DNA of 64,000 bases from an uncultured Actinomycetota bacterium (GTDB lineage: Bacteria; Actinomycetota; Actinomycetes; JADGOV01), in contig CAWFCZ010000018.1 of NCBI GenBank assembly GCA_963814355.1, positions 637,224 to 701,223 of the forward strand, given 5' to 3'. The position numbers and the translations under genes are program-made. This document shows positions 1-39,882 of this stretch, piece after piece. Within the stretch, counting starts at the first letter, position 1. Each line of letters opens with the position of its first letter. The notes below the pieces were generated by a model, which was not told the origin of the DNA, did no database searches, and saw nothing but the letters and a program-made list of their open reading frames with translations.

Positions 1-261
1 GGGTCGCGGTTTGAGTGGCACCAGCGTTGAGTCCAGAGATGACGATCGCGATCGGGATGACCAGGACGACGCGAAACAGTGTCGTCAACCGGTTGTGCTC
101 CTCGGGATAGTCCACCTCCAGGCGCGCGGGGTAGCTCGCCGCTACCGACTCGGTGGTCACAGGTTCTCCTCTCTGGTGGGAAATGGGGTCCTGCCGGCGT
201 TGATCCCGCCGAAAGCTGGTCCAGACTGGCACGCTTCAGACGCGTCGTGGCGAACTTCCCG

Positions 262-2476
262 TCAGGCTACGGAAAGCTCCGGCTCCGTGGTGGCAGGCGC
301 TGCGATGTCCAATGCGATGGGTGGGAGCGTGAAGCCCTTGAACGCCATCCAGAGGCCGACCGAGAGCTCCCACATCGCCACCGGAAAGGCCGCGATGCCC
401 GCCCAGGTCGAGAACTGGCCAAAGGCGCCGAACATCGTGGCGGTCGAGGACGCGATGAGCACGGGGGCGCCGATGAGTCCGAGCCTGGGGATGGCGCGAG
501 GAACGAGGCCGGACCGGTACATCAGTGAGCCGAGCAGGAGCGCGTTGACGCCGGAGAGGATGCCGGGGCCGACGAGGTACGCCCAGTTGTGGATCGCGAC
601 GAGGGCGTCGCCGGTGGTGGCCAGCGAGGCCCCGTCTGCTCCGGGGGTTCCGGCCAGGGCCGTTCCGCGCAGCACCGGGCCGTCTTGCGCCGACGCGAGA
701 CGCAACGCCTGCTCGTACGTGCGCATCGCGTCGCGGAGGCGACCTTGGGTGAGCCGGATGTCCGCCAGCGCGACCGCACAACCGAGGGTGTCGGCGATGT
801 ACCCGCCTCGCTCCAGCCTCGCTGTGCACTCGGCGTACATCCGGTGTCCGGCCTCGAGCTGCCCACTCGTCCAGTACGCAAGTCCGAGAAGGCCGGCGCC
901 GCCGCCACGCACCAGATGTGCGTCACTGCCGGCGAGCTCGAGCGCTCGTCGGGCGTGGGTCATGGTGGCGGCTATATCGCCGACGACCAACGCTCGCCCG
1001 GCCCGGTAGAGGGCTGCCAGCGACGGGAGCGCACGAAACTCGGCGTCGTCCACGACAACCATCGCATCCGGCGGGGCCGTTGGTGCCTCGGACAACCCTG
1101 CCGTCGGCTCCAGCCACCGCTCGGCGTCTCGGATCCGCTCCTCGACGCCCTCCAGCTGACCGGTGGTCAGCAACGCCCCGGCATAGTGGACGCTCAGCAC
1201 GGGCCTGCAGCGGAGCACGGGATCGGGAAGCGCCTGGAGCCAGGCGAGCGCGGTCGCCTCCTGCCGCTGTTGGCGCACGGCCGGTAAGGCCAGCTCGACG
1301 AGGTCCGCCGCTCGGGCGAAATCCTGAGCGGCAAGAGCGTGCCCAACCGCGTCGGAGAGGCGACCGTTGCGCTCGTACCAGGCGCTCGCCCGGCCGTGCA
1401 GCTCCGGCAGTCGGTCGGGCTGTTCCGAACGCAGACGCGCATTCAGCACGTCTGCGAACAGGCGGTGGTAGCGGTACCACTGGCGGTGGTCGTCGAGTGG
1501 GACCAGGAAAAGGTTCCCCCGGTCCAGCGCGCCCAGCATGGCTGTGCTGTCACGCTGGCCGGTGACGGCGTCGCAGAGCGGACCGCTCAGCCGACCGAGG
1601 ATGGAGGTCTGCAGCAGGAAGGCCTGTGCCCGGTCGGACTGTCGAGCCAGCCTCCTCGACCAAGTAGTCGACGACGTAGCGGTCGTCGCCCGAGAAGCCG
1701 GCGATGAAGGCGGTGGGGTCTTCCCGGCCCTGCATCGACAGAGCGGCCAACTGGAGGGCGGCAATCCAGCCTTCGGTCCGCCCCTCGAGGGCGGCGACGT
1801 CTTTGGGTGTCAGCCGCAGGCCCATCGTTCCGTTGAGGTAGGCCACGGCCTCCTCGGGGGTAAAGCGCAGATCGGCCGCGCGAGTCTCGACGAGCTGGCC
1901 GCGAGCCCTCAGCCGGGCCAGCGGCAGCAGGGGGTCGGCGCGGCCGGCGATCACCAGGTGCAGCCGCGCAGGCAAGTGGTCGAGCAGGAAGGCCATTTCC
2001 TCCTGCACATCGCGCGAGTCGATGACGTGGTAGTCGTCGAGCACCAGGACGATGTCGCTCGGCGTGGCGCCGAGGTCGTTGAGCAGCGTCGTGAGGACCG
2101 CCTGTATCGGGGGCGCCTGGGGTGCGTGCAGCAGAGCGAGCGCGCTCGCGCCCACCTCCGGCTTCACCGTCCGCAACGCGGCGATCACATACGTCCAGAA
2201 CGTCGTGGGGTCGTTGTCCTCCCGGTCTAGCGACAACCACGCGGCGCCGCGCGCATCAGAGTGCGCGGCGGGTCGCGCAGCCAGCCACTCCGCCAGCAGC
2301 GTCGTCTTGCCGAACCCGGCCGGTGCGGAGACGAGCACCAGCTTGGACAAGGTCCCCCGGTCAAGGCGCTCGCTCAGCCGCGGCCGCGGAACCAGACTCC
2401 CCTGCCACCTAGGGACGTAGAGCTTCGTCTCGAGCAGGGGGGACGGCACGACCGTCACGTGCTGCGAGCGCGCCAC
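262..2476 (-). pseudogene. MalT-like large ATP-dependent LuxR (LAL)-type regulator, truncated. AAA+ ATPase N-terminal part (1550-2476) plus TPR-like region (262-1764). A frameshift lies near 1550-1764. There is no LuxR HTH, and the C-terminus reads through into a DUF4386-like membrane fragment (about 262-500).
   Basis: Walker A motif GFGKTTLL and DDYHVID motif in the 1550-2476 ORF. Continuation in the 262-1764 ORF (LLQTSILGRLSGPLCDAV..WYRYHRLFADVL). The C-terminal residues RSGLVPRAIPRLGLIGAPVLIA resemble the end of DUF4386 proteins. Confidence 0.55.
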
Positions 2477-2701
2477 AGGCGGAGTCTAGGTCCCGATCGG
2501 CGCGTCGCTCCGGCGCCAGCGATCGACGGAGGATGGCCCGGTCGATCTGCCTCAGCACATTCTGGACGCTGAGCGCGCTCACCGGTGCGGCGCAGTTCTG
2601 TCAGGATTGCGGCGCCGGGGTGCCGAACACGACGAGTGCTGGGCCGAGAACCGGCGATCGGGTTGTGCGGCAGCCTCCTCGGCGGGAGCCAGGCGCCGAG
2701 G

Positions 2702-3405
2702 TCAGTCCTCCTTCGGCTGGTAGCGGTAGCCCATTCCTGGCTCGGTGAGCAGGTACCGGGGGCGGGACGGATTTTCTTCGAGCTTGCCGCGCAGCTGGGC
2801 CATGTACTGGCGTGGGTAGTGGGCGACGTCGGCGTGGTTCGGCCCGCGGATGTCGCGGATGAGTTCGCGTTGGGTGATGAGCCGGCCGGGTTGCGGAGCA
2901 GGATTTCGAGCAGGTGCCATTCGGTACGGGTCAGTCGGAGATCGGTTCGATCGCTCTTGCCGTCGCTGGCTGGCCGAGTGACTCGACGGTGAGCCAGGTC
3001 CACGTTGACCGAGCCCAGCGCGACCATGGGAGCGAGTTCGACTCCGCCGTGGCGGCGGGTGACGGCGCGAACGCGCGCAGCCAGCTCGTCGACATTGAAC
3101 GGCTTGGTGACGGAGTCATCGGCACCCGCGTCGAGCGCGCGGATCTTCTCTTTGCTGTTGAGCCGGCCGGAAAGGATCAGGATCGGGACCGGCGTCCAGC
3201 GACGTAGCTCGAGAATCACGTCGACGCCGTCCATGTCGGGCAGCCCGAGGTCGAGCACGATGAGGTCGGGATGTTCGCGGGCGGCCGCATCGAGGGCTTG
3301 ACGGTCGGCACTAGCGGTGAGGACGTCGTAGGACCGGGCCAGCAGGTTCACCCGCAACGCACGGAGGATTTGCGGTTCGTCGTCGACGACAAGGATCCTG
3401 GTCAC
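2702..3405 (-). pseudogene. kdpE: KdpE OmpR-family response regulator, frameshifted. Receiver domain at 2920-3405, winged-helix C-terminus at 2702-2920 in another frame.
   Basis: N-terminus MTRILVVDDEPQILRAL...DLGLPDMDG. The 2702-2920 ORF ends ...RPRYLLTEPGMGYRYQP, a typical OmpR/KdpE C-terminus. ATGA overlap with kdpD at 3402-3405. Confidence 0.7.
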
Positions 3406-5944
3406 GCCGTGGCCAGTTCGGTGACGTCGCCGCCTGGCCGCTGCGGGTGCGCGGAGCGCAGCCGGATGACCATGGTGAGCCCGCCGCCAGGTGTCTCCTC
3501 CGGCGTGAGCGCTCCGCCCATGACTTCGGTGAGCCCGCGGGCGAGAGCCAGGCCGAGGCCCACGCCGGTGGTGTTATCGGTGTCACCGAGGCGCTGGAAT
3601 GGGGTGAAGATGCGCTCCCAGTCCGTGTGCGGGACACCGGGGCCTTGGTCGATCACCCTCAGCTCCACATCGGCCCCGTGGGCGCTGCCGGACTGTCGCG
3701 GTGGTGTCGATGCCGGCGAATACCGCAGCGCGTTCGCGGTGACGTTGGCGATGACCCGCTCGAGCAGCGCCGGGTCGGCGAGTACCTCCGGCAGCACCGG
3801 GGGGAGTTCGATGCCGACATCCCGCGCGGCCGGTCCGAGCGCGTCGAGCGCGAGTGGGACGACCTCATCGAGGCGGGTCGGCTCGGGGAAGGCCGACAGA
3901 GCGCCGGCTTGCAGGCGGCTCATGTCGAGCAGGTTTTCCACCAGCCTGGCGAGCCGGTCGAGGGACTCCCGGGCTGTTGCGATCAACTCAGCGTGCTGCT
4001 CCTCCGTCCAGGCGATGGTTGCACTGGCCAGACTGTCGACCGCGGCCGTCGCCGAGGCGAGCGGCGAGCGCAGGTCGTGACTCACAGCGGCGAGCAGCGC
4101 AGCCCGCATCCGGTCGGCCTCGGCGAGCGGCTTCGCTGCCTGCGCCGCATCGGCAAGCTGCTGCTGCTCGAGTGCGGCCGCGGCCTGCGTCGCGAAGACC
4201 GTCAGTAGACGCTGCTCCTCGGCCCGGGGCCGGTGGCCGCGAATCACCAGCGCGACGCGGTCCTCGCCGATGGCGTTGCCGTCACCGTCCTCGGCGTGGC
4301 GCTCGGTGGTTCACCGAGGCTGGCGACGACCTTCCACTTCTCGATGGGCCCGTTTGGGACGCGTTCGAGCAGCGTGACCGCGTCAAGCGACAACGCCTCG
4401 CGGAGCCGGTCGATCAGCGCGGGCAGGGCAGCCTGCCCGCGAAGGACGCTGCCAGCGAGGGTGGCCAGAGTCTGCGACTCGGCGTTGGCTCGGGCCGCCT
4501 GCTGGGTACGTCGGGCGGCGAGATCGACCACCCAGCTGACCGTGGCCGCGACGAGAATGAACGCGACCAGGGCGATCACGTTGTCGCGTGCGGCGATCGT
4601 CCATCGATGGATCGGTGGCGTGAAGTAGTAGTTGAGCAGCAAGCTGCCGACGACCGCGGCCGCGATGCCGGGTAGGCGCCGCCGGCGAGCGAGACAGCGA
4701 CGACAGCGAGCAGGCACACCAGCAGGTCGCTGGTCAGGTTCAGCTCGGAACGCAGCTGGGCCAGCACAAGTGTGGTCAACGGCAGCAGAACCACCGCGAG
4801 TGCCGCACCGGGCCAACGCCGCCGGGCGCTCAGGCCGCCGGTCAGGTCGGGGAGACGCCTGCCGCGCCCGATCTGTTCATGGGTGACCATGTGCACGTCG
4901 ATGTCGCCGGACAGCCGCACAGTGGTCACGCCGATCCCGGCACCGGAGAAAAACGCAGCCAGGGCGGATCGGCGGGACGCGCCGACGACGAGCTGGGTGG
5001 CGTTCTCAGCCCGGGCGAAGTCGATGAGCGTTTGCGGCACGTTTTCGCCGACGATCTCGTGGTAGCCGCCGCCGAGCGACTCAAGCAGCCGACGCTGTTC
5101 GGCGAGATGGGCTGGGCTGGCGCCGGCGAGCCCGTCCGAAAGGACGACGTGCACGCCGAGAAGGTCGGCGCCACCGCGGGTGGCGATGCGCGCTGCCCGC
5201 CGGATCAACGTCTCCCCTTCCGGCCCACCGGTGAGCGCGACTACGACCCGCTCTCGGGTCTCCCATGTCCCTTCGATGTGATGGTCGCGGCGATATCTCT
5301 GCAATGACTCGTCGACCTTGTCGGCCAGCCACAGCAGCCAGCTCTCGTAGCGCGCTGAGGTTGCCAACCCGGAAGTAGTTGGCCATAGCCGCGTCGATCT
5401 TGTCGGCGGCGTAGATGTTGCCGTGCGCCATCCGCCGGCGCAAGGCTTCCGGAGTGATGTCGACGACCTCGACTTGGTCAGCGGCTCGGACAAACGCGTC
5501 CGGCACGGTCTCGCGCTGTCGGATGCCCGTTATCTTCTCGACGACATCGTTGACCGATTCGAGGTGCTGGATGTTGACCGTGGAGAGCACGGTGATCCCG
5601 GCGGCGAGCAGGCTCTCGATGTCCTGCCAGCGTTTCTCGTGCGCACAGCCAGGCACGTTGGTGTGAGCGAGTTCGTCCACGCAGACCACGTGCGGACGGC
5701 GCGCGATGACCGCGTCGACGTCCATCTCCTCGAACGTTGTCCCGCGGTAGTCGATGATCCGGCGGGGGACGACCTCGAGATCGCCGATCATTGACCGCGT
5801 GCGGGCCCGGCCGTGCGTCTCCACAAACCCGACGACGACGTCAGTCCCGCGAGACTTTCGGCGATGCGCCTCCCCGAGCCTCGCGTAGGTCTTTCCGACG
5901 CCCGGTGCGGCGCCGAGATAGATGCGCAACGTTCCGCAGGCCAT
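3402..5944 (-). pseudogene. kdpD: KdpD sensor histidine kinase, split into at least 4 reading-frame pieces: KdpD N-terminal domain 5081-5944, Usp/TM 4576-5493, TM/GAF 4244-4816, HisKA/HATPase 3402-4247.
   Basis: GAAPGVGKTY P-loop of the KdpD N-terminal domain. H-box SHDLRSPL. HATPase G-boxes DQGPGVP and GVGLGLAL. The pieces are colinear but in different frames. Confidence 0.75.
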
Positions 5945-5954
5945 GGCCGGGCCT

Positions 5955-6854
5955 CTATCGGGTCTGCAGCCGGTCGAGGGCGAGGTTGACCAGCAGCACG
6001 TTCACCGCGGGCTCACCCATGAAGCCCAGTGTCCTCGATGAGCTGTACTTGTTCACGAAGTCGAGCACCGTCGCCAGCGGAAGGCTGCGGACCCGGGCAA
6101 CGCGCGGGGCCTGCAGTCGGGCGTAGGCGACGGAGATGTCCGGGTCGAGCCCCGACCCGCTCGCGGTGACCGCGTCCGGTGGTACCGGGTTGGCCGGCCA
6201 GGCTCTTCCCGGCCCGCGCAGCGCGACGATGCGGCCGATGCGGTAGTTCTCGCCGAACGTCGCACACTGCACCGGGACACCGTCGAAGATCGCCAGGAAC
6301 AGTGTAGCCGGGCAGGCCTGATTCACGCTCACGACCCGTACCACCGCGCCGGCAATGCCCTGCGCGCGGATCACGGACAGGACCGCTCCTACCCCGTCCG
6401 GTGTGCAATAGGGCCTCAGGCCGTCGACTCTTTCGAGTTGGCCTACCGCGATGCTTCGTGCGCAGACCTGAGTCAGCAGTCCCTGCTTGCCGGTGTCGCC
6501 TTTGACGGACGGGTCGGGCGGCGTGTCAACGATCTCTTCCGGTCCGAGGTTCGAGGCGCTGGTGGCGGTCGGATCGTAGCCGTCACCGGCCGCCGAGGGG
6601 CGGGACTGGAAGTATTTCCGGATCGGGTTGCCCTTGCTGTCGGTGAAGGCCTGGCCGATCACCGCTGACCCGACGCCGCCGTTGGCGTCGATGAGGGACC
6701 CGTCCGCGCGGTGCTGCAGGCCAGGCATCTGCACGGCCGCGGTCACCGCAAGCGGGTAGGCGATGCCGAAGATGACCGTGAGGACGAATAGGGCGCGCAG
6801 TGCGGCGACGTGCCGGCGCAGCCAGGCGGGTAGTCGGATGAGCATCACAGTCAC
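5955..6854 (-). CDS. kdpC: K+-transporting ATPase subunit C (KdpC), apparently intact
   Basis: 299-aa ORF. N-terminal TM helix plus conserved KdpC motifs ([15 protein letters not shown]). Lies between kdpB and kdpD in the canonical order. Confidence 0.7.
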
Positions 6855-8954
6855 CGGATTCCGGGGATGAATTGCACCACGAGGTCGATCAGTTTGATGC
6901 CGAGGAACGGCACGACCAGCCCGCCGAGGCCGTAGAGGTAGAGGTTACGGCGCAGCATCGCCGAGGCGTTGCTGGGCCGGTAGCGCACCCCACGCAGCGC
7001 GAGTGGGATGAGCGCCACGATGATGAGCGCGTTGAAGACGACCGCGGCCAGGATTGCGCTCTCCGGCGAGTCCAGCCGGATGACGTTGAGCGTGTCCAGC
7101 CCCGGGTAGACCGCGGCGAACATCGCGGGGATGATCGCGAAGAACTTCGCGACGTCGTTCGCGATCGAAAAAGTCGTCGGTGACCGCGGGTGATGAGGAG
7201 TTGTTTGCCGATTTCGACGATCTCGATGAGCTTCGTAGGGTTGGAGTCAAGGTCGACCATGTTGCCGGCTTCTTTGGCCGCTGACGTACCGGTGTTCATC
7301 GCGACACCGACATCGGCCTGCGCCAGAGCGGGAGCGTCATTGGTACCGTCGCCCGTCATCGCGACGAGCTTGCCGCCCGCCTGCTCGCGACGGATCAGCG
7401 CCATCTTGTCCTGTGGTATCGCTTCGGCGAGGAAGTCATCGACTCCGGCCTCGTCAGCGATGGCCTTGGCGGTGAGCGGGTTGTCACCGGTGATCATGAC
7501 CGCGCGGATACCCATGGCGCGCAGCTCGTCGAAGCGTTCGCTGATGTCTTGCTTGACGATGTCCTTGAGGTGGATGACCCCGAGTACACGCGCGCCCGTG
7601 GGGCCCGTCGCCGCGACCACGAGCGGGGTACCGCCGGCGCTGGAGATCCCGTCCACGACCGGGCCGAGCTCGGCCGCCGGGACGCCGCCCGATTCGCGCA
7701 CCCAATCGCGGACCGCGCTCGACGCGCCCTTGCGGATCTGCCGGACGACGGCGTCGTCGGCCAGGTCGACGCCGCTCATCCGGGTCTGCGCGCTGAACGC
7801 GATGAACGTCGCCTGCCCGAGCTCGCCTTCGTGACGTTCCCGCAGCCCGTACCGGGTCTTGGCAAGCACGACGATCGAGCGGCCCTCTGGTGTCTCGTCG
7901 GCCAAGCTCGCCAGCTGGGCGGCGTCAGCCAATTCCGCTTCGCTGACGCCGGCGACCGGGATCAGCTCGACGGCTTCGCGGTTGCCGAGGGTGATGGTGC
8001 CGGTCTTGTCCAGCAGCAGGGTGTTGACGTCACCGGCGGCCTCGACCGCGCGGCCGGACATGGCGAGCACGTTGCGTTGCACAAGCCGGTCCATGCCGGC
8101 GATGCCGATGGCGGACAGCAGCGCACCGATCGTGGTCGGGATCAGACAGACCAGCAGCGAGACCAGCACGATGCCGGTGACACCGTGCGCGGTCAGCGCG
8201 CCCGAGTCGGGGACACCGGGTTGCTGCGCCTTCGAGAAGATTGCCAGCGGCTGCAGCGTCGCGACCGCGAGAAGGAAGATGATTGTCAACGACGCGAGGA
8301 GGATGTTCAGTGCGATCTCGTTCGGTGTCTTCTGCCGTGATGCTCCTTCGACGAGCGCGATCATCCGGTCGATGAAGCTCTCGCCCGGCTTCTGGGTGAT
8401 CTGCACGATGATCCGGTCGGACAGCACCCGGGTACCGCCGGTCACCGAGGAACGGTCCCCGCCGGACTCGCGGATAACCGGTGCCGACTCGCCGGTGATC
8501 GCGGACTCGTCGACACTGGCGATCCCCTCGACGACGTCGCCATGGCCTGGGATGGACTGGCCAGCCTCGACGATGACGATGTCACCTTGCTTCAGCCGGG
8601 TGGCGGGGACCTGCTCCTCCGGAATCCCGGCGATGTCGCGGCTTGGTGCCCACCGGCGAGCCGGCGGGCGACCGTCTGGGTCTTTGCGCGGCGCAGTGTC
8701 TCGGCCTGGGCCTTGCCGCGGCCTTCGGCGACGGCTTCGGCGAGGTTGGCGAACAGGACAGTCAGCCGTAGCCACGCGGCGGTGATGATCGCGAAGGCGG
8801 TGTGGTCGCGGATCGCCAGCCAGGTCGTGTAGATCGAGCCGATCTCCACGATGAACATGACCGGGTTCCTGTAAAGGGTTCGTGGGTCGAGCTTGCGGAA
8901 CGCGTCCGGGGTGGAGTGCCACAGCATCTTCGGGTCGAGTAACCCGCCCTGCAC
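6851..8954 (-). pseudogene. kdpB: K+-transporting P-type ATPase subunit B (KdpB) with two frameshifts, near 7150 and near 8640
   Basis: DKTGTIT phosphorylation motif, TGDN and [10 protein letters not shown] motifs in the 6889-8991 ORF. True N-terminus ([26 protein letters not shown]) in the 8592-8954 ORF. True C-terminus in the 6851-7123 ORF. Confidence 0.75.
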
Positions 8955-8999
8955 CCGACGTGGCCGACCCGGGGCATCTGCCGCGAGTCATACGTTGCG

Positions 9000-10680
9000 G
9001 CGGTCATCAGTGCAGCCCCTCTGACCCGGTTCCGCAGGTAGTGGGGTGGGGTGCGGCGTGGTGAGGTGACGAATGCCCTTGCTGGTAAGGAGAATCGTGG
9101 TGCTGAAGCCAGCGGTTCTCTGACCGGGAAGGGCACCCGTCCGGTGAGCAGACTACGACGGAAAGCACGTGGTTCCACCAGGGCCCGGGTTCGGCGCGCC
9201 GGGGTGCGGTTGGGACGGCCGGATCCGTCGCTGACCGGCGTCGCGGGTTTGGCGGGTGTGGATGAGCTGGTCGCCGCGTTGGGGGTGGTGCCGGCGTTGG
9301 ACGCGGGTATCGGGGCGGTCAAGTCCCGGGTCCGGGGCGCGACCGCCGGGCAGTTGGTGACCGGGTTGGCGGCGGCGCGGTGGTGCGGCGCCGAGTGGCT
9401 GTCCGGCTGTGACGGGCTGCGGGCCGACGCGGGCAGCGCGCTGCTGACCGAGGCGGCTGTCCCGGCGTCGACGACGGCCGGGTCGTTGATGCGCCGGTTC
9501 GGCCCGGGGCAGATCGCCGGGATCGAGACCGGGCTCGGTGTGGTCTATGACCGCTGGCTGGCGCTGGTGCCCGGCGCTACCCGTGCTCCGCTGGTCACCC
9601 GGGCGCCGAGGATCGACCTGGACGCCAGCGACGTCGAGGTCTACGGCCGGGCCAAGTGCCGGGTCGGCTACACCTACGCCGGGGTGAAGGCCGGCCGGGT
9701 ACATCTGGCGAGCTGGGCCGGCGCCGAGTTGCCGTTGGCGGCCGATCTGATCGCCGGCAACGAGGATGTCCGCCCGGACGCGCCGGCGCTGCTCCGCCGG
9801 GCGCTGGCCGTGCTGCCGGCGGCGGTGTGCGCCCGGCCGCGGCTGCGCGCGGATGCCGGCTACTTCGACGCCGCCCTCGCCCACGCCGCCCGGGACGCGG
9901 GCGTCGATTTCGCTATCGCCGCGAAGCGGAACCCGGCCGCGTGGCGGGCGTACGCGGGCATCGAGGAGACGGCCTGGCGCGACGCCCGGGACATGACCGG
10001 CGCGCAGGTCGCGTCGTGCGGCTACACCCCGGCCGGCTGGCCGGAAGGCACCTACACCATCGTGCGCCGGGTCCGCGTCGACGCCGAGACGATCAGCGCG
10101 GACCCGCGGTCGAGGCGACGGCGGACCATCGCCGCTGACCAGCTGCGCCTCGCGCTCAACCGGCTGGTCGACCATGCCTGGGCGGTCAGCTTCATCGTCA
10201 CCGACATCCCCGCCGACGACGCCGACCTGGTCGGGCTGGAAACCTGGTTCCGCAACCCGGGTCAGCGTCGAGGAACGCTTCCGGGAAGCCAAACTCGGCG
10301 CCGGGCTGTTCCACCTCCCCTCCGCCGACCACACCGTCAACACGGTCTGGACCTGGGCGGCGCTCCTCGCCGGCGCGCTCAACGTGATGCTCACCGGCCT
10401 GACCGGGGCGCAGCCCTACGTGCGCCACCCCGGCCGGGTGCACATCGACACCCTCCGCCGCCACCTACTCACCACCCCGGCACGGCTGATCCGCCACGCC
10501 CGCGGCCTGACCCTACGACTACCCCCCAACGCAACGCGGTCGAACAAACGAACGAAAAAAAAGACCTGACCCTACGACTACCCCCCAACCGCAACGCGGT
10601 CGAACACGTCCTGACCCGGCTGCGCGCACTCCCCGCCCCGGCCTACTGACCGACGACCCCGCCCCTACCACCGGAGACAC
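9000..10680 (+). mobile_element. IS1380-family insertion sequence occupying the position where kdpA should be. Its transposase carries a 1-bp homopolymer frameshift (about 10262) and a 3' tandem duplication. Element ends are not resolved.
   Basis: Transposase ORF 9051-10649 with N-terminal DPSLTGVAGL..ELVAALG motif and DDE-type core. C-terminal part ERFREAKLGAGLFHLPSADH..NTVWTWAALLA is in the 10174-10569 frame. The element sits between kdpB (start 8954) and kdpF (10883). Confidence 0.6.
10506..10606 (+). repeat. Tandem duplication (about 41-bp unit, 59-bp period, A-rich 18-bp linker) inside the 3' end of the IS1380 transposase gene
   Basis: cctgaccctacgactaccccccaacgcaacgcggtcgaaca occurs twice (10506-10546 and 10565-10606). 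The copies are separated by aacgaacgaaaaaaaaga. Confidence 0.8.
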
Positions 10681-10799
10681 CGGACACCACGCCGGACGAA
10701 CCGTCACGCCCAGACACACCCGCCACTATCCGGCCGCGCCAGCACCAAGATCACAGCCCTAACTGCGGAATTGGGTCAGACCGATCACGTTCTCCGCGG

Positions 10800-11419: not shown

Positions 11420-12052
11420 ATGGACGTCGCAACCTGGGACGCGCGGTACACCGGCAGCGACCTGGTCTGGGGAGCAACACCGAACCTCTTCGTCGCCGCC
11501 GAGTTCCAGGGTTACCCGCCCGGTCGGGCGCTGGACATCGCCTGCGGCGAGGGCCGCAACGCGATCTGGCTGGCCACACGCGGCTGGAAGGCCACCGGGA
11601 TCGATTTCTCCCGGGTGGGACTAGACCGCGCAGCCCATCTTGCCGCCGACGCGGGTGTCGCCGACCGGGTCGACTTCGTTGTCGGTGACGTGGTGGCGGG
11701 TCCGCTGCCTCCCGGGCCGTTCGACGCGGTCATCGTCGCCTACCTTCAGTTGCCCGCACCGCAGCGACGGGCAGCGCTGCGCCGCGCGGCGCAGGTCGTC
11801 GCACCGGGTGGGACGCTGCTCGTCGTCGGGCACGACACCACGAACCTCGTCGAGGGTGTCGGTGGGCCGCAGGATCCTGCGGTGCTCTTCACTCCGGAGG
11901 AGGTGCAGGCCGACCTCGCGGACCAGCCCGACCTCATAGCCGACAAGGCCGGGCGGGTGCGCCGGCCTGTGGCGACGCCGGACGGGGAACGGGCTGCGGT
12001 CGACGCGCTCGTGCGGGTCCGGCGGAGAACAGGCGGACGGAGCGGGCGATGA
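11420..12052 (+). CDS. Class I SAM-dependent methyltransferase
   Basis: LDIACGEGRNAIWLA (motif I, glycine-rich) and later motif LLVVGHD. 210 aa. Confidence 0.7.
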   Translation: MDVATWDARYTGSDLVWGATPNLFVAAEFQGYPPGRALDIACGEGRNAIWLATRGWKATGIDFSRVGLDRAAHLAADAGVADRVDFVVGDVVAGPLPPGPFDAVIVAYLQLPAPQRRAALRRAAQVVAPGGTLLVVGHDTTNLVEGVGGPQDPAVLFTPEEVQADLADQPDLIADKAGRVRRPVATPDGERAAVDALVRVRRRTGGRSGR

Positions 12053-12191
12053 CGTGCTGCGCCGCGGGGCTTGCCGCAGGCACGGCGAGGCTGTCCACGG
12101 CGATGCCGACGGGTCGCCGGGCACGGTCACGGTCCCGCTTCGACGACGCGAGCCGCCGGTGCTTCCCCGGTCGCACCGACCGCGTCGGAAC

Positions 12192-12710
12192 ATGCTGGAG
12201 GTAGCTGTGAACGTCTCCGGGCCGATGCCCATCGTTGCCGAGGCCTACCTCGATCGGCTCGTCGACGCCAATGCCCTGCCCTGGATCGAGCACGAGGTGC
12301 CGTTGGTTGGCGGGACGGGCACGCAGGCCGTGAAGCTGCTGCACGCTGATCCGGCGACCGGCGTCTACGCGATGCTCGCTCGTTATCCCAAGGGTCTAGT
12401 CATTCCCCGACATAAGCACCTGGCGCCAGCACATAGCTGGATCCTCCAGGGCGCCTGGCGCTTCGAGGAAAGCCGGCTGACCGCAACGTCTGGGTGCTAC
12501 TCGTATGAGGAGCTGGGCGCGATCCACACGATGCTCATCGAGGAAGACACCGTCGCGTTCCACGTCATCGGTGGGCCGCTGGTCTTCCACGATCCGGATG
12601 GCGGCGTCCGTGAGATGTGGGACTGGGAAAGCACCCAGATCGCGTGGCGGCGGTCGCTTGCCGACGTTGGACTGGCGCCCACTGCCTGGCGGCCCGCACC
12701 CCGCGGCTGA
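12192..12710 (+). CDS. Cupin-domain protein (ChrR-like cupin fold)
   Basis: IPRHKH..HSWILQGAW...EELGAIHT cupin motifs. Start probably ATG 12192 (MLEVAV...). The upstream part of the 12054 ORF is likely non-coding. Confidence 0.55.
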   Translation: MLEVAVNVSGPMPIVAEAYLDRLVDANALPWIEHEVPLVGGTGTQAVKLLHADPATGVYAMLARYPKGLVIPRHKHLAPAHSWILQGAWRFEESRLTATSGCYSYEELGAIHTMLIEEDTVAFHVIGGPLVFHDPDGGVREMWDWESTQIAWRRSLADVGLAPTAWRPAPRG

Positions 12711-13041
12711 CGCGACGATACGAGGGGCCTCCGCTCCCGGTCATTCCGGCCGAGATGCTTGATGAGGTCGAGTTCGGGCCGCCCGATGACCACCTTCCGG
12801 CGCGACGTCATACCACGCACGTCGTCCGCCGAGGGCGCTGGGACCCGGAATGGCGCACCCCTGGACATCGGTGTGGATTTCGTCGACGGGGGCTGGTCGC
12901 CGTTGCAGCACCAGTCGTGACGCGGCCCCGGCGTCGCGCTCATTCGGTGGCCACCACCGGTTAAATCTCGTGACCGTCCCGGGCAGGTCTCACGACCGCC
13001 CATTGGGCGGATTCTGGTGGCCCTTGACAGACGCCCCGGCT

Positions 13042-15320: not shown

Positions 15321-15325
15321 CGCAG

Positions 15326-27310: not shown

Positions 27311-28025
27311 GCCTTCTCCCGCCCCGAGCACCGGCACTGCGAGCGGGGATTCGACCGCGGCAACCAGCTGCAGGAGCAGTACCTCGCGACCATCAAGGAC
27401 GTCCGCCCGTCGGTCGTCCTGATCCAAAGCAGCAAGGACCTGGGCTCGGGCGTCGTCCTCGAGCCAGGGCGACATCGTCACCAACGACCACGTCGTCGGC
27501 ACGGCAACGTCCATCCCGGTGACGCTCTCCGGGAGCTCCACCAGTCACCCCGCAACGCTCGTCGGCACCTATCCCCCGGACGACCTCGCCGTCATCCGGG
27601 TAAGCGGCGCCGGCACGCTGCGCCCGGCCCACTTCGCCAACTCCTCCAAGCTCGAGGTCCGGCGACATCGTCCTGGGCAGCGGCAACCCTCTGGGCCTGG
27701 CCAGCAGCGTGACCAACGGGATCATCTCCGCGCTCGGCCGGACCGTCAGCGAGGCGACGAGCGCGGACTCGCCCGGCGCCACCCTCCCCGACACCATCCA
27801 GACCAGCGCCGCAATCACCCTCGGCGGCGTCTGGTCGACCTCTCCGGCCAAGTCATGAGGATCCCGACGCTCGCGGCGACCGATCAGCGGCTCGGTGGGG
27901 GGCCGCGCCAAGCATCGGGTTTCGCTATCTCCAGCAACGTCGTCAAGGACATCGCCGCCCAGCTCGTGGCGGACGGCAAGGTCACCCGGTCGCACCGCGC
28001 CGCGCTGGGCATCCGACCTACCTGA
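27290..28025 (+). pseudogene. HtrA/DegP-like S1C serine protease, frameshifted at least twice
   Basis: SVVLIQSS..LGSGVVLE and ..DIVTNDHVV in one frame. GNPLGL..GIISALGR.. in a second frame. C-terminus ..VKDIAAQLVADGKVTRS. Confidence 0.5.
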
Positions 28026-29786: not shown

Positions 29787-30059
29787 CTCACGCGCTATCG
29801 GCCGCTGCACCGACTCACCACGTGACCCTCGGCTCCAGGGGGCCGCTGCCACGAGCGCCTGGGTCCCGGGGTGAGCTCCACGTGGGCCTGTCATCGGGTG
29901 AGAGTCAGGTTGGGTCGCATCCAGCCGGGGATGACTAGGGAGCGCAGGATCACTTGATGTTGGTGATCGGAAGACTGCCGGCGTTTACGGCGGAGGGACG
30001 GTCCTGTTTGTGTGCCAACCGTCGCTGGACCAGGCTGCGGGACCGCGACACCATGGAAC

Positions 30060-31435
30060 GATGACGCGCGCCATCGCGGCCGATTATCTGGTGGTGGGAG
30101 CGGGCGCCATGGGGATGGCCTTCACCGACGCCCTGACCGACCACGCCGACGTTCGGGTGGCGCTAGTCGACCGCCGTCACAGCGCCAGTGGGCACTGGCT
30201 CGAGGCCTACCCGTTCGTCCGTTTGCACCAGGCGTCGGCGTTCTACGGGGTGGCTTCGATACTCCTCGGCGACGGTCAGGTGCAGGAGCACGGACCGGAG
30301 CAGGGCCTGCAGGAGCGGCCACCCAGGCGGAGGTTTGCGCCTACTACGCTCGGACGCTCGACCGGATGCTGGGCTCGGGCCGGGTGGAGTTCCACCCCAA
30401 CAGCGAGTATGTGGGCGGCCGCACGGTCGTCTCGCGGATCTCCGGTGAACGGTTCGAAGCGCCGGAGCGGTGTCGGGTCGTCGACGCCCGCTACCTGGCG
30501 CCCACCATTCCCGCCGAGGTGCCACCCCCCTTCGGCGTCGCCGAGGGCGCCCGGGTGGTGCCGGTCAACGCGCTAGCGGGGCTTGAGGAGGCACCGCGCC
30601 AGTACGTCGTCGTCGGATCCGGCAAGACCGCGACCGACGCGTGCATCTGGCTGCTGTCGCGCGGTGTGGACCCTGATTCGGTGTGTTGGGTGCGGCCCCG
30701 CGACCCGTGGATGCTCAACCGGGCCGTCATCCAGCCAGATCCCGCGGTCTTCTTGGGAACCGCAGCCGCATCATGCAGGCAGCCGAGGCGTCAACCTCGT
30801 TGGAGGACTTGTTCCTCCGGCTGGAGGATGCCGGCGTGATGCTACGCATCGATCAAACGGTGATGCCGACGATGGCCAAGACGCCGACGCTGGCGAAGTG
30901 GGAGCTCGAGCACCTTCGGGCACTTGAGAACGTGGTACGGCGCGGCCACATCCATAGCGTCGACCGGGGCAGGCTCAGCTTCGGTGACGGAGCTGTGGCC
31001 ATCGCCGACGATGCCCTGGTCGTACACTGTGCGGCCGAGGGCCTGAAGTATCCGCCGTTGGTTCCCGTCTGGCGACCCGAGGCGATCACGTTGCAGCCGA
31101 TCCGGGCCGGCTTCCCGTGCTTCGGCGCGGCAGTCATCGGGTACGTCGAGGGGACCCGCGTCGGGGACACCGAGAAGAACCGACTCTGTCCACCGACGCC
31201 ATACCCCGACTCGATGGCGCAGTGGGCGAGGATGAATGTCCTGGGCACCAAGGCGGCCGAGGCGTATTCGGCTGAGCCAGACATCAAAGAGTGGTCTGAC
31301 CGGGTCGCGATCAACCCGGCACGGATCCCACCCGGACATCCGGGATCGGCTGCCCTGGACAACGCACGCGAACGCTTGGCCAAACACACCCGGTCGGGAC
31401 TGGCCCAGCTCGCCAAGCTGAGTGAGCCGCGATGA
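30060..31435 (+). pseudogene. FAD/NAD(P)-binding oxidoreductase, frameshifted near 30300 and 30770
   Basis: DYLVVGAGAMGMA dinucleotide motif. Second motif YVVVGSGKTATDA in frame +3. C-terminal part in the 30683-31435 ORF. Confidence 0.55.
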
Positions 31436-31550
31436 CGCCAACGGGTCCCGGGCGAGCTTGAAACGGGGCACCAGCAGGCAGTTCTTGCCTGCTCGCGCGA
31501 AGGCGGCCTAGCGTCGATAGACCCCGAGGCGAGAGCGGCGAGGTGGTTCC

Positions 31551-31850
31551 GTGATCATCGAACTGGTGCGGTACGGAACAGAGCTCAGCCACGACGAGGT
31601 AGTGAATCGATTCCAGGACCGAGTTGACGCTACCGAGCCGTCCTTGGCCTCGTGCGGAAGTACCACGTCTACTACGTGGGGAGCAACCACTTCGGCGGCT
31701 TATAGGTTGGGAATCCCCCGAGGCGTTACGAACTGGCGAGAAGGCAAACTCGCAGAGACCCTCGCCGCGGCGTATCACGTTACCGACAGCCCGAACTCTG
31801 AAGAGTCCGAGGTGCTGCTGGTCCTCCATGGTCAGAGTGGTCCTTCTCTG
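31551..31850 (+). pseudogene. Degraded paralog of the YdhR-like gene. Part of an about 380-bp segmental duplication (28147-28530 vs 31477-31860).
   Basis: MIIELVRYGTELSHDEVVNRFQDRVD.. then frame loss and an in-frame TAG. The C-terminal ..NWREGKLAETLAAAYHVTDSPNSEESEVLLVLHGQS is recovered in another frame. The 5' flank cgcgcgaaggcggcctagcgt is shared with copy 1. Confidence 0.6.
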
Positions 31851-32538
31851 ACGTCCGCGGCCTGCGCACGGGCGTGGGGAACGCCTGGTTACGCCGTTGG
31901 GTGCGGGACTCTGCCGATGAGCGTTCACCCGCGTAGCGTCGGTGACGCACCTGGCACTGTCGACGTCCACTTCTCTCTCGTCCCGGTTCGGACGGGCTGC
32001 TCCCCACCGTTCAGCGGAGGGCGTCGACGCATGGAGCTGTGCGATCCGCCCCCCTTGTCGGCGCGGCGACCGAGAAGAGTCCAGCAAGGAGCGTGCTGGA
32101 TCCAGCCGGACGCCGCTGCGGAGTCGCCGCGCAGCGGCAACAGGAACACAAGGCCGATGGCAGCCTACGCAGCCCGGGTAGTCTTGCCTCGGCAACCAAC
32201 CGCTCGGGGGCGAACTCGAGCGCCCGGTCGGCCTGACCCAGCCACCACGTCGAGTCCTGCCAGGCGACCAGGTCATCGCCGGAGAGCTCGCAAAGCCGGT
32301 GAGCACGTGACCATGGCTCGTCGGCTCGGCGAACCCGACGCGCGGAGTGCGCCGCGCGTGCCCGCCGGAGCAACTCGGCCTGATCGCTCACCACCGATCG
32401 TCACCGACCAGCTTATGGACAAGGCCGCAGGGACTCACGACTGTCGCGTTGCGATGGTGAGGAACTTTCATCGACCGCGGAGACGATTGGGTATCCAATC
32501 CGATGCGGGTTCGGCGGTGGGTTCCTAGCGTCGGAGTC

Positions 32539-33499
32539 ATGGACACCGAGCACGTCATGACCCGAAGAGCCAGGAGGTCCCGCGACTCTGGCGATCCGGT
32601 CGCTGCCTTCCTCGATGCCGAGCAGCGGGTCCTCGACCTCTATCGGGTCACCGCGCATCGTCGGTACGTCGAGGTGCCGACGACCGGTGGTCAGGCGCAG
32701 GTGCTGGTGGTAGGTCAGGGGCCGCCGTTAGTGATGGTGATCGGCGGTGCTGTGCCGGCCGCGTTCTGGATCCCGCCGATGGCCCGGCTACCGGGCCGCT
32801 CGCTCTACGTGATCGAGCTGCCGGGGTTCGGGCTCACAGAATCCGGCCGTGTACCTCCCTGCGACGCTGCGGCGGACCGCTGCCGAGTATCTGGCCGGCG
32901 ACCTTGACGTCCTTGGCCTGGAAGCGACTCGCTTCGTGACCCAGTCGATGGGCTCCCTGTGCACTTCGTGGCTGGCGGCCGACCGGCCCGGGACGCTGAC
33001 GTCACAGGTGATGATTGGCTGCCCGGTGTTCTTCCTCGATACCTTGGCGGTGCTGCCGTTCCGGCTGGCCTCCGTTCCCGGCCTCGGGTCGATGCTGATG
33101 GGCCCGCAGAGGCCGTCGACAGCCAACCCCGAGCGGGCGATGCGGACGGTCGGAGAGGATCCGGTGGGGTTCGGCGAGCTCCGCGACGTTCTCCTCGCCG
33201 CGCAGCGGCCGCCGACGTGCACCCCGAGCCTGCTGGCCCTGATGTGTGCGGTGATGAACTGGACCCGACCGCGATCGCAGATCCTGAGCACGCCTGACCA
33301 GCTGCGGAGGATCGGCCATCCGGTGCCGCTGGTCTGGGGGCAACAGGACCGCTTCGGAAAGCCCGAGGCCGGTCGCCGGACCGCCGAGTTGATTTCGGGC
33401 TCCGACCTGCGCCTGGCGCCCGGCGGCCACACTCTCTGGTTCCACCCTGCTGACCAGGTCGCCGAACTAGCCCGCGAGCACCTGAAGGCTGGGTCATGA
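32539..33499 (+). pseudogene. Alpha/beta-hydrolase-fold protein with a frameshift near 32850
   Basis: N-terminal part 32503-32907 (VLVVGQGPPLVMVIGG). Nucleophile region TQSMGS and C-terminal part in the 32849-33499 ORF. Confidence 0.5.
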
Positions 33500-34099
33500 G
33501 CACCGACGGCCCGCTCGTGTTCGGCGCAGCCACGGTGGTCCTCTTCGTCGTCGTCATGACGCTCGAGGGCGTACGGAGGCCCGGGTACGTCGCGGCGTAC
33601 CACACGGGGAGCGAGCTTGAGCTCGGACCGGGCGGCTGGGTCCAGCGTGCGAACTTCCTCCCTGTGGGCTCGGGTTTCGCCGCCGTCGCGGTTGGAGTGC
33701 AGCGCACCCTCCAGACGACCGCCGGCGGTTCTGCTCGGCGTTGCGGCCCTGGGCCTGGTGATGGCCGCGATGTTCCCGCCGGACCCGGTTCGCGGATACC
33801 CGCCCGGCGGATCGAGCCGGACAGCCAGGCCCGAGACCCTGCACGCCAAGCTTCACGAGGTCAGTGGTCCGTTGATGACCCTGGCCCTGTTCGGGGCCTG
33901 CATCGCGGTCGCCCGACGGCTCGAAGGTCTGTGGGTGATCTACACGCTCGCGACCGCGCTCGTCGGCTCGGTCACCACCGTCTGGCTGATCGCCTCCTAT
34001 CGCCGTGACGCCGCCAATACCGGCCTGGTGCAACGGGCGCTGATCGCCACGTACTGGCTGTGGATCACGATGCTCAGCGTCCACCTCGTCATTGGCTGA
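33496..34099 (+). pseudogene. DUF998-like membrane protein with a frameshift near 33720
   Basis: Hydrophobic N-terminus (33496-34008 ORF) continues in the 33617-34099 frame (..TLALFGACIAVARRLEG..ATYWLWITMLSVHLVIG). ATGA overlap with the upstream gene. Confidence 0.4.
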
Positions 34100-35224: not shown

Positions 35225-35305
35225 GGCCGCGTGCGAAGCCCGGTCGCAAGGCCGCACCTCGCCGACGGCGGACGTCATCGAGGCCCGCAGGAAGGACACC
35301 ATGTG

Positions 35306-36967
35306 GCTAGGCTCGAGGTGCACGAGGAGGTGGATGAGATGGAGGTTGTCCAGGATCTCCAACGGGCGCGGGAGGCATACGAGCGGCGCGACTGGGTGGC
35401 GGCGTATCGAGCCCTCTCCGACCTCGACGACACGGAGCTGAAGGCCGAGGACTTCCTGGCACTGCCACCACCGCCTACCTGCTCGGTCGGCGCAACGACT
35501 GTGTGCACGCGCTCTCCAGCGGGCGTATCAGGCGGCCGTGGGGTCCGGGGACCGGCAGGCGGGCGTTCGCGCGGCGTACCTGATGACCATCACCTTGTGG
35601 CAGGCGGGAGAGCTGGCCGTCGGCAATGGCTGGCAGGCCCGGGCCGGGCGGCTCCTGAGCGAGCTCGACAACGATGTGGCCGAGCGTGGCTACCTGCACG
35701 ACCTGGACATGATGGGGCACATCCTCTCCGGTGAGTTCGGTGAGGCGTTCCCACTGGCGCCACAGATCACCGACTGCGGTCGACACCACGACGAGCCGGA
35801 CCTGCTCGCGCTCGGACTGCACGCCGAGGGTCGGCTGATGCTCTATCGGGCTCAGTGGCCGATGGCCTGAAGCGGATGGACGAGGCGCTGGCTGGCGTCA
35901 TGGCTGGCGGGGTGACCGCGGTAACGGCCGGACGGGTCTATTGCTCCACGATCGAGGCCTGCCAGGAGGTCTCCGACTACGGCCGCGCCGGTGCGTGGAC
36001 CCACGCGCTGACCACGTGGTGCGAGAACCAGCCGGGGCTGGTCGCCTTCACCGGGCAATGTGCGACCCATCGGGGCCAACTGCTACGCCTGCACGGCGCG
36101 TACGCCGAGGGGGTCGAGGAACTCCAACGGGCGGTCGACCGATATCTGGCCGTCGGCGGCGACCCCGCCCTCGGACTCGCCCACTACGAGCTCGCCGAGA
36201 CCCACCGACTGCGCGGCGAGTACGACGACGCTGACGCTGGATACCGTCGTGCAGCCGAGCACGGTCATCCCTGCCAGCCGAGACGTGCGCTGCTCTGGTT
36301 GGCCAGCGGGCGACCTGATGCGGCGGCAGCGGCGGTACGTCGGCTGCTCGCCGAGCTCAAAGACCCCGTGCGCCGCTCGCAGATCCTGGCGGCGGCTGTG
36401 GAGGTGCAGTTGGCTACCGGCGACACCGATGGCGCCGCTCAGCTCTGCGAGGAGCTCCGGATGATCGGGGAGACGTTCGGCTGCACCGCCCTTCAGGCCG
36501 CGGGCGAGTACGCCCTCGCGACCGCCGAGCTGGCCCAGGGTGCACCCGAGCCGGCACTCCAGGCGGCACGCCGAGCGGTGGAGGGCTGGTCACAGCTCTC
36601 CGCTCCCTATGAGATAGCGCAGAGCCGGCGGGCAGTCGGCCAGGCGCTGCGCCTCCTCGGTGACGAGGAGTCAGCACTCGCCGACCTGACCGCCGCCAGG
36701 AAGACCTTCGCCGATCTCGGCGCCGGTCCAGCCGAACAGGAGACCGCCGCCCTGCTCGGGGAGGACAGCGCGCCCGGCGGGCTCAGCCCGCGTGAGCTCG
36801 AGGTGCTGCGGCTAGTTGCCGCCGGCAGGGCCAACTCGGAGATCGCCGCAGAGCTTGTGCTCTCGGAGAAGACCGTGTCGCGACACCTCTCCAACATCTT
36901 CTCCAAGCTCGATGTCGGTTCCCGGACCGCAGCGGCGGCATTCGCCTATGAGCACCGGTTGCTCTGA
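35306..36967 (+). pseudogene. LuxR-family regulator (TPR-like N-terminal region plus C-terminal LuxR HTH) with about 2 frameshifts
   Basis: Pieces at 35231-35734, 35538-35870 and 35855-36967. [46 protein letters not shown]. Confidence 0.55.
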
Positions 36968-39006: not shown

Positions 39007-39662
39007 TCAGGCTCTGATGGGTGGTCCGGTCGCGGCGGTGAAGAGCCGTTGCCAGGGTTCGGCCCAGGGCCAGGCGGCGGGCAGCCGCAGGGTTGATCGG
39101 CGGGCTGATCGGGTGAGTCGGGCTGCGACGCTGATCAGCTGCCGGCGGATGGTCGCTGTCGTCGCCTTCGTATGAATGGTCGAGGCCAGCGTTCCGACTG
39201 CGCGGGTGAGGTTGAAGGCCATCGCGGCCAGGACGAGCCAGGCCGAGTTGGCGGCGAAGTGCCCCGACGGCAGGTGCGCGAGCGGCCCGTTCTTCAGATC
39301 GGCGATGACCTGCTCGATGATTGCGTGACGGCGGTGATCACGTTCGGCCTGGAGCATCGGCAGCGGGAGTCGGTGAACACCGCGTGGTGGCGCCAGACCC
39401 GGAACAGCTCACCTTGGGCGTTCACCTGGACGTGGTCGGGGTTCTGGTCACGGACTCGCCGCACGATCAGCCGTCCCGTGACCAGCCGGGATTTTGGTTT
39501 GGAGGTGAACGCGGTGAACGGCACCTCGGCGACCTCGGCATGGCGCGTCGATGACCCAGAAGCCCCCCTGGCACCAGGCCAGATTCGAGGTCCCGAGACC
39601 TTGAAGTGGATCCTCGAACTGCACGTTGAGCCCCGCACATACCGACCGACGACTAAGTCCAC
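39007..39662 (-). mobile_element. 5'-truncated IS1380-family transposase fragment (C-terminal about 220 aa, itself frameshifted). A different family member from the 9-10.7 kb copy.
   Basis: ..LIVRRVRDQNPDHVQVNAQGELFRVWRHHAVFTDS.. (39294-39662 ORF) and ..IEQVIADLKNGPLAHLPSGHFAANSAWLVLAAMAFNLTRA..TLRLPAAWPWA.. (39007-39357 ORF). Confidence 0.6.
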
Positions 39663-39840
39663 GCCAACCGCGAGCGCCCAACCTCAGCCCCCGTCGATCA
39701 TGGCGGGGGCTTCTTCATGTGCCTGGCTCCAATCCTCCACTCAGGCCCGTTCAACCCCTCCTCCAGACGTAGATCCCTCCACGGCCCACGCTCAGTGCAC
39801 CATGATCACTAGTAAATCGCTAGAAAATCCGGAAAGCAGA

Positions 39841-39868
39841 AGGGCCATGATCCGGAAATCATGGCCCT
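39841..39868 (-). terminator. Rho-independent-terminator-like hairpin just 3' of the tRNA (AGGGCCATGAT-ccggaa-ATCATGGCCCT, followed by a T-rich run on the minus strand)
   Basis: Perfect 11-bp inverted repeat. The minus-strand sequence after the stem is tttccggattttctagcgattt. Confidence 0.5.
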
Positions 39869-39882
39869 GACCTACACTTATG

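Follow-up and report, generated by a model that had tools for sequence, protein, structure and literature searches.

A pseudogene-dense flexible region beside the initiator tRNA gene of a high-GC actinobacterium

Genes on either side of the initiator tRNA

The 64 kb stretch of DNA analysed here (the window) comes from a high-GC actinobacterium (GC 69-72%) and is divided by its only tRNA gene, that of initiator tRNA-Met, into a left segment (1-39.9 kb) crowded with broken genes, among them those of a kdp operon, an insertion sequence (IS) of the IS1380 family, and a sugar ABC transporter, and a right side (40-64 kb) in which every gene is intact. Genes were called by tiling the window with a codon-likelihood model and scanning the tiles against Pfam and NCBIfam, with gaps between tiles of at most 1.2 kb, and intact orthologues were fetched from metagenomes where possible and compared by tblastn and nucleotide alignment. 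The references were related loci, cited here by L numbers: L082 and L081 for kdp, L085 for the substrate-binding protein (SBP) and permeases of the sugar transporter, L094 for a FAD-dependent oxidoreductase, L053 for a LuxR regulator, and L083 for the core genes, with synteny compared over 80 related loci. An Rfam scan for riboswitches or other RNAs, for example upstream of kdp, returned the tRNA only.

The source assembly is probably a long-read metagenome-assembled genome (MAG). The species representative nearest to its UPF0182 protein (40007-43024, minus strand) is a Frankiaceae MAG, at 77% identity, with all others in the collection at 56% or less and metagenomic matches at 90, 86, and 84%; the closest relatives of the window share 84-90% protein identity with it. 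Eight protein sequences of the window occur exactly in the protein collection, all of them on one contig of 1,268,737 bp and seven on this contig only, with a DUF5679 protein of 50 amino acids (aa) found on five further contigs too.

The features that carry the argument are as follows.

2702..9007, minus strand: remnant kdp operon (tblastn and nucleotide alignments against the intact L082 and L081 operons; Pfam)
9020..10780, plus strand: IS1380-family element, here IS1380a, in the exact place of kdpA (inverted repeats, sequence, and DDE_Tnp_1_4 in two frames)
25427..26204, minus strand: fused remnant of two ABC permease genes (comparison with the intact L085 operon)
26247..27262, minus strand: pseudogene of an alpha-glucoside-type SBP (comparison with intact 450-aa proteins; nucleotide alignment)
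39883..39959, minus strand: initiator tRNA-Met, anticodon CAT (ARAGORN; Rfam, 63.6 bits)
40007..64000, strand unassigned: conserved actinobacterial core block, all genes intact (synteny in 70-80 loci; full-length matches to L083; complete Pfam domains)

Approximately 20 genes of the left segment are disrupted, with 24 frameshifts and two nonsense codons in 32.8 kb of coding DNA, a density of ~0.8 lesions per kb, whereas neither a frameshift nor a nonsense codon was found in the 22.9 kb of coding DNA at 40-64 kb. With uniform placement on coding DNA, a division of frameshifts into 24 on the left and none on the right has P = 3e-6. An earlier note on this DNA, made from the letters alone, had listed the broken left genes, and every one was confirmed by tiling, by Pfam and NCBIfam, or against intact orthologues. 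The same note described the right side as error-free, and this too holds: each gene at 40-53 kb gives one full-length high-scoring segment pair to its L083 orthologue without an internal stop, and the Pfam domains of the genes at 51.7-64 kb are complete and in a single frame. The block encodes UPF0182, a PDZ-Lon protease, MoaE, Zincin_2, YgjP, enoyl-CoA hydratase (ECH), DUF5679, ThiF-like, ABC1 kinase, and WhiB proteins, together with UvrD2 with HRDC, glutaredoxin, GAF-ANTAR, NudC, an EEP nuclease, PGA_cap, and two UvrD/PD-(D/E)XK helicase-nucleases. The tRNA itself shows the marks of an initiator, a C1:A72 mismatch and an anticodon stem of three G:C pairs (GGG/CCC), and is followed by a hairpin terminator.

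Within the kdp remnant, kdpB, kdpC, kdpD, and kdpE are retained in the order of L082, with 72-89% protein identity to its kdpFABCDE. The kdpC ORF (open reading frame) is intact, kdpB contains three frame-disrupting deletions, kdpD contains three frameshifts (one deletion of 2 nucleotides (nt) and two of 1 nt), and kdpE one, a 1-nt deletion. An intact KdpA query found no tblastn match in the whole window. Beyond the IS, at 10800-10883, is a kdpF-like ORF, called by its position and resemblance only, with no tblastn match to the KdpF of L082 (E ≤ 1e-3) and none in Pfam; a complete kdpFABCDE is thus not found, with kdpA gone and the kdpF-like ORF unmatched. Without kdpA, the kdp system cannot function. 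The earlier note was right to list kdpB, kdpD, and kdpE as broken, however it overlooked the loss of kdpA and its replacement by an IS1380 element.

IS1380a is 1.76 kb in length and lies 20 nt from the stop of the kdpF-like ORF and 12 nt from the start of kdpB. Its transposase carries a frameshift at ~10252, with positions 22-301 and 329-418 of the 435 of DDE_Tnp_1_4 matched in two frames. The terminal inverted repeats are imperfect (9020-9048 and 10752-10780; 29 nt, 79% complementary), and no target-site duplication is seen, with the element flanked by ...gcagcccc and ccgatcac..., which is compatible with deletion or recombination after insertion. Near the 3' end of the transposase gene, at 10507-10606, a stretch of ~40 nt, ctgaccctacgactaccccccaa(c)cgcaacgcggtcgaaca, occurs twice in tandem, the two copies differing by one C and separated by the A-rich spacer aacgaacgaaaaaaaaga, and the transposase C-terminus is thereby duplicated. 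Elsewhere in the lineage, the relative with P0003 (175 kb contig) carries an intact kdpFABCDE between two phage-type integrase genes, and the intact operon of L082 is flanked by transposases; the kdp module may be mobile in this lineage.

The sugar transporter has been reduced by deletion. Compared with the intact operon of L085, an internal deletion of ~1.5 kb has joined aa 15-176 (of 469) of permease 1, ending at 25707, to aa 212-297 (of 297) of permease 2, starting at 25684. This ABC permease had been described as frameshifted; the gene is indeed broken, however the cause is the deletion that joins two permease genes. The first ~114 codons are missing from the SBP pseudogene, which has 72% identity to intact proteins of 450 aa, and the ATPase gene expected upstream from the operon context in L085 is absent. 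Two nonsense codons interrupt the SBP pseudogene, TGG>TGA at 26960-26962 and CAG>TAG at 26376-26378, at sites that are W and Q in all close homologues and with alignments continuing across both stops, and three frameshifts occur, +1 at 26724, -1 at 26619, and -1 at 26468. The +1 and the -1 that follows it are 105 nt apart (26619-26724) and restore the original frame.

The remaining broken genes of the left segment are listed below.

262..2485, minus strand: LAL-type regulator pseudogene, here LAL#1 (Pfam coordinates on tiles 1 and 2; tiling)
16440..18328, plus strand: NarL-type two-component pair (tiling, Pfam, NCBIfam)
23545..25303, minus strand: remnant of a LAL-type (STAND/LuxR) regulator, here LAL#2, including a DUF4242-like fragment (Pfam, partial NCBIfam match, tiling)
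25160-25303, minus strand: DUF4242-like fragment of 47 codons before LAL#2 (family label from the earlier note)
27604..27858, plus strand: fragment of an HtrA/Do-family serine protease (NCBIfam HtrA models)
30055..31435, plus strand: FAD-dependent oxidoreductase pseudogene (tblastn and nucleotide alignment against the intact L094 orthologue)
31516..32058, plus strand: decayed duplicate of the ydhR-like segment 28187-28740 (repeat families D1-D3; pairwise alignment)
32503..34099, plus strand: PcaD-like alpha/beta hydrolase pseudogene, then DUF998 pseudogene (NCBIfam; Pfam)
35231..36967, plus strand: pseudogene of a LuxR/GerE regulator with a TPR region, here LuxR-TPR (tiling; Pfam and NCBIfam; L053 homologue)
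39007..39683, minus strand: IS1380-family transposase remnant, here IS1380b (Pfam, NCBIfam, tiling)

Truncations are prominent among these. A frameshift near 1645 accompanies the cutting of TPR_MalT in LAL#1 at profile position 119 of 336, where it is joined to the C-terminal half of DUF4386 (109-210), while LAL#2 has lost both ends, with AAA_16 beginning at profile position 63 and no GerE domain, and carries two frameshifts (three tiling frames). Only ~57 of 500 residues of HtrA are left, corresponding to profile positions 305-360 of 502. The DUF4242 gene was said to be broken, and a fragment is all that exists there, however the family label finds no Pfam or NCBIfam match on the 47-residue piece. 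IS1380b comprises the C-terminal third of its transposase, with one frameshift (DDE_Tnp_1_4 324-426 of 435; transpos_IS1380 269-419 of 419).

In the others, the frame breaks dominate. The NarL-type kinase has two frame switches of the 1-nt-deletion type, with HisKA_3, HATPase_c, and the N-terminal membrane part in three frames, and its response regulator switches frame at ~18150 inside the GerE helix-turn-helix, with GerE positions 2-27 and 27-57 in two frames. The FAD oxidoreductase carries two 1-nt deletions, at ~30318 and ~30769. The ydhR paralogue (31516-31837), in a duplicate that is 83% identical, has lost a single nucleotide at three places within 322 nt and also contains a TAG, the three deletions having P = 0.002 at the regional rate. 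The alpha/beta hydrolase is shifted near 32840, its repaired halves matching PcaD/PcaDC models at 25-109 and 187-251, and DUF998 near 33728, with profile positions 2-69 and 64-184 in different frames. LuxR-TPR, with GerE at its C-terminus, switches frame near 35480 and 35850 (tiling frames 2/0/2), and its L053 homologue aligns in two different frames; the two shifts, ~370 nt apart, are opposite and restore the original frame. In annotation, ~20 genes should therefore be called pseudogenes or remnants, and the ABC permease a deletion chimera.

Decay and read error

The contrast between the two sides stands, and as judged from its sequence the left segment contains genuine pseudogenes, because no indel-type read error could produce its large deletions, IS replacement, gene fragments, and two nonsense substitutions. 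At least nine structural lesions were found in the segment, and the lesions independent of indel error comprise the exchange of kdpA for IS1380, the permease deletion, the 5' loss and two nonsense codons of the SBP, the truncations of LAL#1 and LAL#2, the fragments of HtrA, DUF4242, DUF4386, and IS1380b, and the clustered lesions of the ydhR paralogue.

The frameshifts have a possible second explanation, namely that most of them are long-read consensus errors in a strain-specific region of low depth, laid over a smaller number of genuine structural pseudogenes, which we consider unlikely. Several points nevertheless favour it, and weigh against reading the whole segment as decayed. The source is probably a single contig of a long-read metagenome assembly, and no independent assembly in the protein collection holds the same left-segment proteins as exact sequences. 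By frame arithmetic, 17 of the 24 frameshifts belong to the 1-nt-deletion class and seven to the +1/-2 class. Nanopore errors typically run in the deletion direction. The frameshifts are also spread evenly over the left genes, without overdispersion (P = 0.21 and 0.58). Codon bias is kept, and KdpD shows no acceleration, with a relative-rate difference of ~0 and seven singleton replacements at otherwise invariant columns against 1-17 in other sequences, which is compatible with young decay or with error. Ten genes (kdpE, kdpD, kdpB, the NarL-type kinase, its regulator, the FAD oxidoreductase, the alpha/beta hydrolase, DUF998, LuxR-TPR, and the IS1380a transposase) are broken by frameshifts alone, their status thus depending on base-level accuracy, and some of them could be consensus artefacts. 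Nanopore metagenome bins below ~40-fold coverage retain indel errors (Sereika et al. 2022, PMC9262707), and a strain-specific region could be covered by fewer reads than the shared core, in which case it would contain more consensus indels.

This bears on the earlier argument that uniform sequencing error would not produce the asymmetry. The asymmetry is not a matter of chance, however the possible lower depth of a strain-specific region weakens the argument, and a difference in frame breaks between core and accessory genes cannot alone exclude sequencing error in a long-read metagenome assembly; error-proof lesions are needed. An argument that scattered frameshift-free genes exclude a uniform process was likewise dropped, with simulation giving P = 0.21 for the untouched length and a chi-square test P = 0.58.

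Twelve of the indels were mapped on orthologue alignments: nine 1-nt deletions, one 2-nt and one 7-nt deletion, and one 1-nt insertion. The homopolymer context of frameshifts, which the earlier note had proposed as a check, could be read for these 12, and all of them fall outside G/C runs of five or more, although such runs occur at 1.2-1.6 per kb. Furthermore, frameshifts are denser in genes or operons that are dead on independent structural grounds, where 14 are found and 8.8 would be expected (P = 0.026; counting the ydhR paralogue, P = 0.006), an enrichment predicted by decay and not by read error because older pseudogenes collect more lesions. A region with many true lesions should additionally hold true frameshifts, and two to three nonsense codons imply many neutral mutations. 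The segment resembles the frameshift artefacts of nanopore metagenomes (PMC9262707) in that otherwise well-conserved genes on a long contig are interrupted by numerous single-base frame breaks, for the most part of deletion type. It differs in that its breaks lie outside long homopolymers, are found together with nonsense codons and kilobase deletions, concentrate in structurally dead genes, and are absent from the adjacent 24 kb of sequence, including all 22.9 kb of its coding DNA.

Age and origin of the region

Where the broken genes can be read through, they appear little changed. Once repaired, KdpD has its full length and shares 84% identity with intact proteins, and at third codon positions the broken genes have a GC content (GC3) of 0.87, as does the core. 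The decay is inferred to be young because codon bias is kept and KdpD shows no excess of amino-acid change. Some 2.5-2.9% of substitutions in the left genes would make a stop, and, with generic indel-to-substitution ratios, the two to three nonsense codons and ~24 frameshifts would be compatible with neutral evolution.

We read 1-39.9 kb as a lineage-specific, dispensable region of the chromosome in recent and essentially neutral decay, to which we assign a probability of about 0.7. The region begins directly after the initiator tRNA, at the end of a deeply conserved actinobacterial synteny block, and contains accessory modules typical of this Frankiaceae-like lineage: a kdp operon with KdpDE, an alpha-glucoside ABC importer, a NarL-type two-component system, LAL/LuxR regulators, and small enzymes of redox or aromatic catabolism. 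IS1380 activity and internal deletions have removed or truncated kdpA, the permeases, the 5' end of the SBP gene, both LAL regulators, and HtrA, and deletion-biased small indels and GC>AT nonsense substitutions then built up to the present density in coding DNA, with none in the adjacent core. The ORFs still open would be mostly chance survivors and not demonstrably selected cargo.

Pseudogene clusters are known from flexible or horizontally acquired regions, where they have been described as 'failed' accessory genes (Liu et al. 2004, PMC522871). The left segment is similar, with disabled accessory genes (regulators, transporters, and IS) in a non-syntenic region beside an intact core, and with frameshifts, nonsense codons, truncations, and IS events mixed, however no foreign origin is evident here: it shares the composition of the core and its nearest homologues are of the same lineage. 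It is thus a real, young, pseudogene-dense flexible region beside tRNA-fMet, of a kind already known (PMC522871), and its biological importance is small, as pseudogene-rich flexible regions by conserved core blocks are well known.

The earlier note had called the segment a decaying island that starts at the 3' end of tRNA-fMet. The non-syntenic accessory region and its genuine pseudogenes are borne out, whereas no integrase, tRNA repeat, or compositional mark was found in the window. A degraded integrative island would be a mobile element inserted in the 3' end of the tRNA gene, its integrase and distal repeat lying beyond the left end of the window or deleted, and we find this origin doubtful. 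The boundary itself is sharp: the gene order from UPF0182 to tRNA-Met is kept in 67 of the 80 related loci, nucleotide homology ends at 39851 with L083 and at 39882 with L001, that is 0-30 nt past the tRNA 3' end, and none of the 80 loci has a left-side gene within 10 kb of this tRNA, so that the synteny comparison that the earlier note called for bears out the proposed start of the segment. The statement that an IS1380 fragment adjoins the tRNA is also correct, with the IS1380b remnant ~200 nt away. To these can be added the 45-nt direct repeat of the 3' half of the tRNA that L013, a related long-read MAG, carries 8.1 kb downstream (12995-13069 and 21124-21167), and the integrase or transposase genes that flank the kdp operons of relatives. 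As in tRNA-associated islands, the variable DNA starts at a tRNA 3' end and is absent from relatives.

Against an island, Pfam and NCBIfam scans of all coding tiles found no integrase or recombinase in 1-39.9 kb, and the tRNA 3' end (TTCAAATCCTGCCCCCGCTACCA) has no second copy in the window (23-mer, up to three mismatches), the far boundary possibly lying beyond the left window end. The compositional comparison suggested in the earlier note gave no distinction: tetranucleotide profiles correlate at r = 0.53 between left and right compared with 0.50 within the left, GC3 is 0.82-0.87 in the left segment and 0.865 in the core, and GC is 0.69 and 0.72 respectively, without an island signature. Proteins of the same lineage are the closest to kdpD (84% identity) and to the SBP (72%), and with the MOSC cluster included the best homologues, again of this lineage, share 72-89%, identities similar to those of core genes. 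Additionally, gene content after the tRNA is conserved within genera only and differs between all lineages compared, and the first large ORF after the tRNA is an integrase in none of 10 relatives, this place being taken by regulators of the GntR and LuxR types, an aminotransferase, MFS transporter, acyltransferase, epimerase, or sigma factor, and in one case an rve transposase. The tRNA is therefore a general edge of the synteny block, a breakpoint that, together with 39.9 kb in which no integrase, flanking direct repeat, or compositional signature was found, sets the segment apart from tRNA-associated islands; the block may have arrived as an integrative element at the tRNA, with a low probability.

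Genome-wide reductive decay, in which the window would contrast an essential core with dispensable genes and not an island with the chromosome, could account for the disruption of about half of the genes in 40 kb, which is far above what is usual for free-living bacteria (PMC522871, PMC11229322), for losses in sensing, regulation, and transport, for the presence of IS copies, and for an intact right side composed only of genes conserved across Actinomycetes, however it is not likely, as all 19 right-side genes are intact, including such unlikely essentials as PGA_cap, EEP, GAF-ANTAR, and ECH, and 64 kb only is in view. The comparison that suggests itself is the IS-driven decay of Mycobacterium leprae and M. 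lepraemurium (PMC5646247, PMC6211624), likewise high-GC actinobacteria in which multiply disrupted genes stand by intact conserved ones, with deletions and IS, although the pseudogenes of M. leprae are old and heavily eroded, and here one 40 kb segment shows young decay with codon bias and protein identity kept.

A wider form of the preferred reading, dispensability of a single region, would have the whole 40 kb block, open ORFs included, become selectively neutral only recently, as a niche shift or a reduction of the genome was beginning. This is suggested by the uniform density of frameshifts and by the nature of the losses, which affect potassium uptake, sugar import, and several signal-transduction regulators, and we hold it to be improbable. 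If true, the contig would give a rare view of decay at a very young stage in a soil actinobacterium.

Open reading frames of the left segment and further observations

Two groups of genes in the left segment are uninterrupted.

11420..16066, strand unassigned: ORFs of a methyltransferase, a ChrR-like cupin, a DUF4386(1-176)-hydrolase, and an NmrA-like reductase (Pfam, NCBIfam)
18543..23345, strand unassigned: redox cluster of a pyridine-nucleotide disulphide oxidoreductase, a double muconolactone-isomerase protein, an SDR, and a MOSC-FNR-ferredoxin protein (Pfam)

Some products of the first group occur as exact sequences in the protein collection. A subset of intact cargo genes had been proposed, and these ORFs are indeed open, however the DUF4386 module of the hydrolase ORF is incomplete (1-176 of 210), and selection is not required to explain their survival, given the uniform spread of frameshifts (P = 0.21 and 0.58). 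The DUF4386-hydrolase ORF is flanked by DUF4386 fragments at ~15005-15325 and may be a fusion product. Four DUF4386 pieces occur altogether (262-650 and 13042-15325): the 109-210 piece joined to LAL#1, a C-terminal piece with which the ORF 13042-15183 begins, the 1-176 module linked to a PETase/chlorophyllase-like hydrolase, and, at 15005-15325, a piece covering 26-73. Their distribution suggests recombination or deletion among DUF4386 paralogues.

The genes of the redox cluster are also adjacent in the metagenomic relatives L086, L088, and L094, at 70-89% identity. With the FAD oxidoreductase at 30055-31435 included, the cluster recurs as neighbours in the same three relatives at 59-89% identity, and may represent a conserved small cluster of redox or aromatic catabolism.

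In relatives, the surroundings of tRNA-Met vary in several ways. The block between the two repeats of L013, which contains ORFs for a P-type ATPase and for G6PD-like, MarR, and ClC-like proteins, is likewise broken up into several frames. Contigs end at or within ~100 nt of tRNA-Met in L002, L014, L015, L020, L024, L032, L036, L073, L078, L080, and L084, and the locus is a frequent assembly break point. Streptomyces and Actinoallomurus carry a second copy of tRNA-Met 1-2.9 kb downstream. L019 and L055 contain, 1-7 kb downstream of the tRNA and within DNA of ~70% GC, a block of ~6 kb with 57-59% GC and almost no long ORFs, which is probably an rRNA operon rather than an island.

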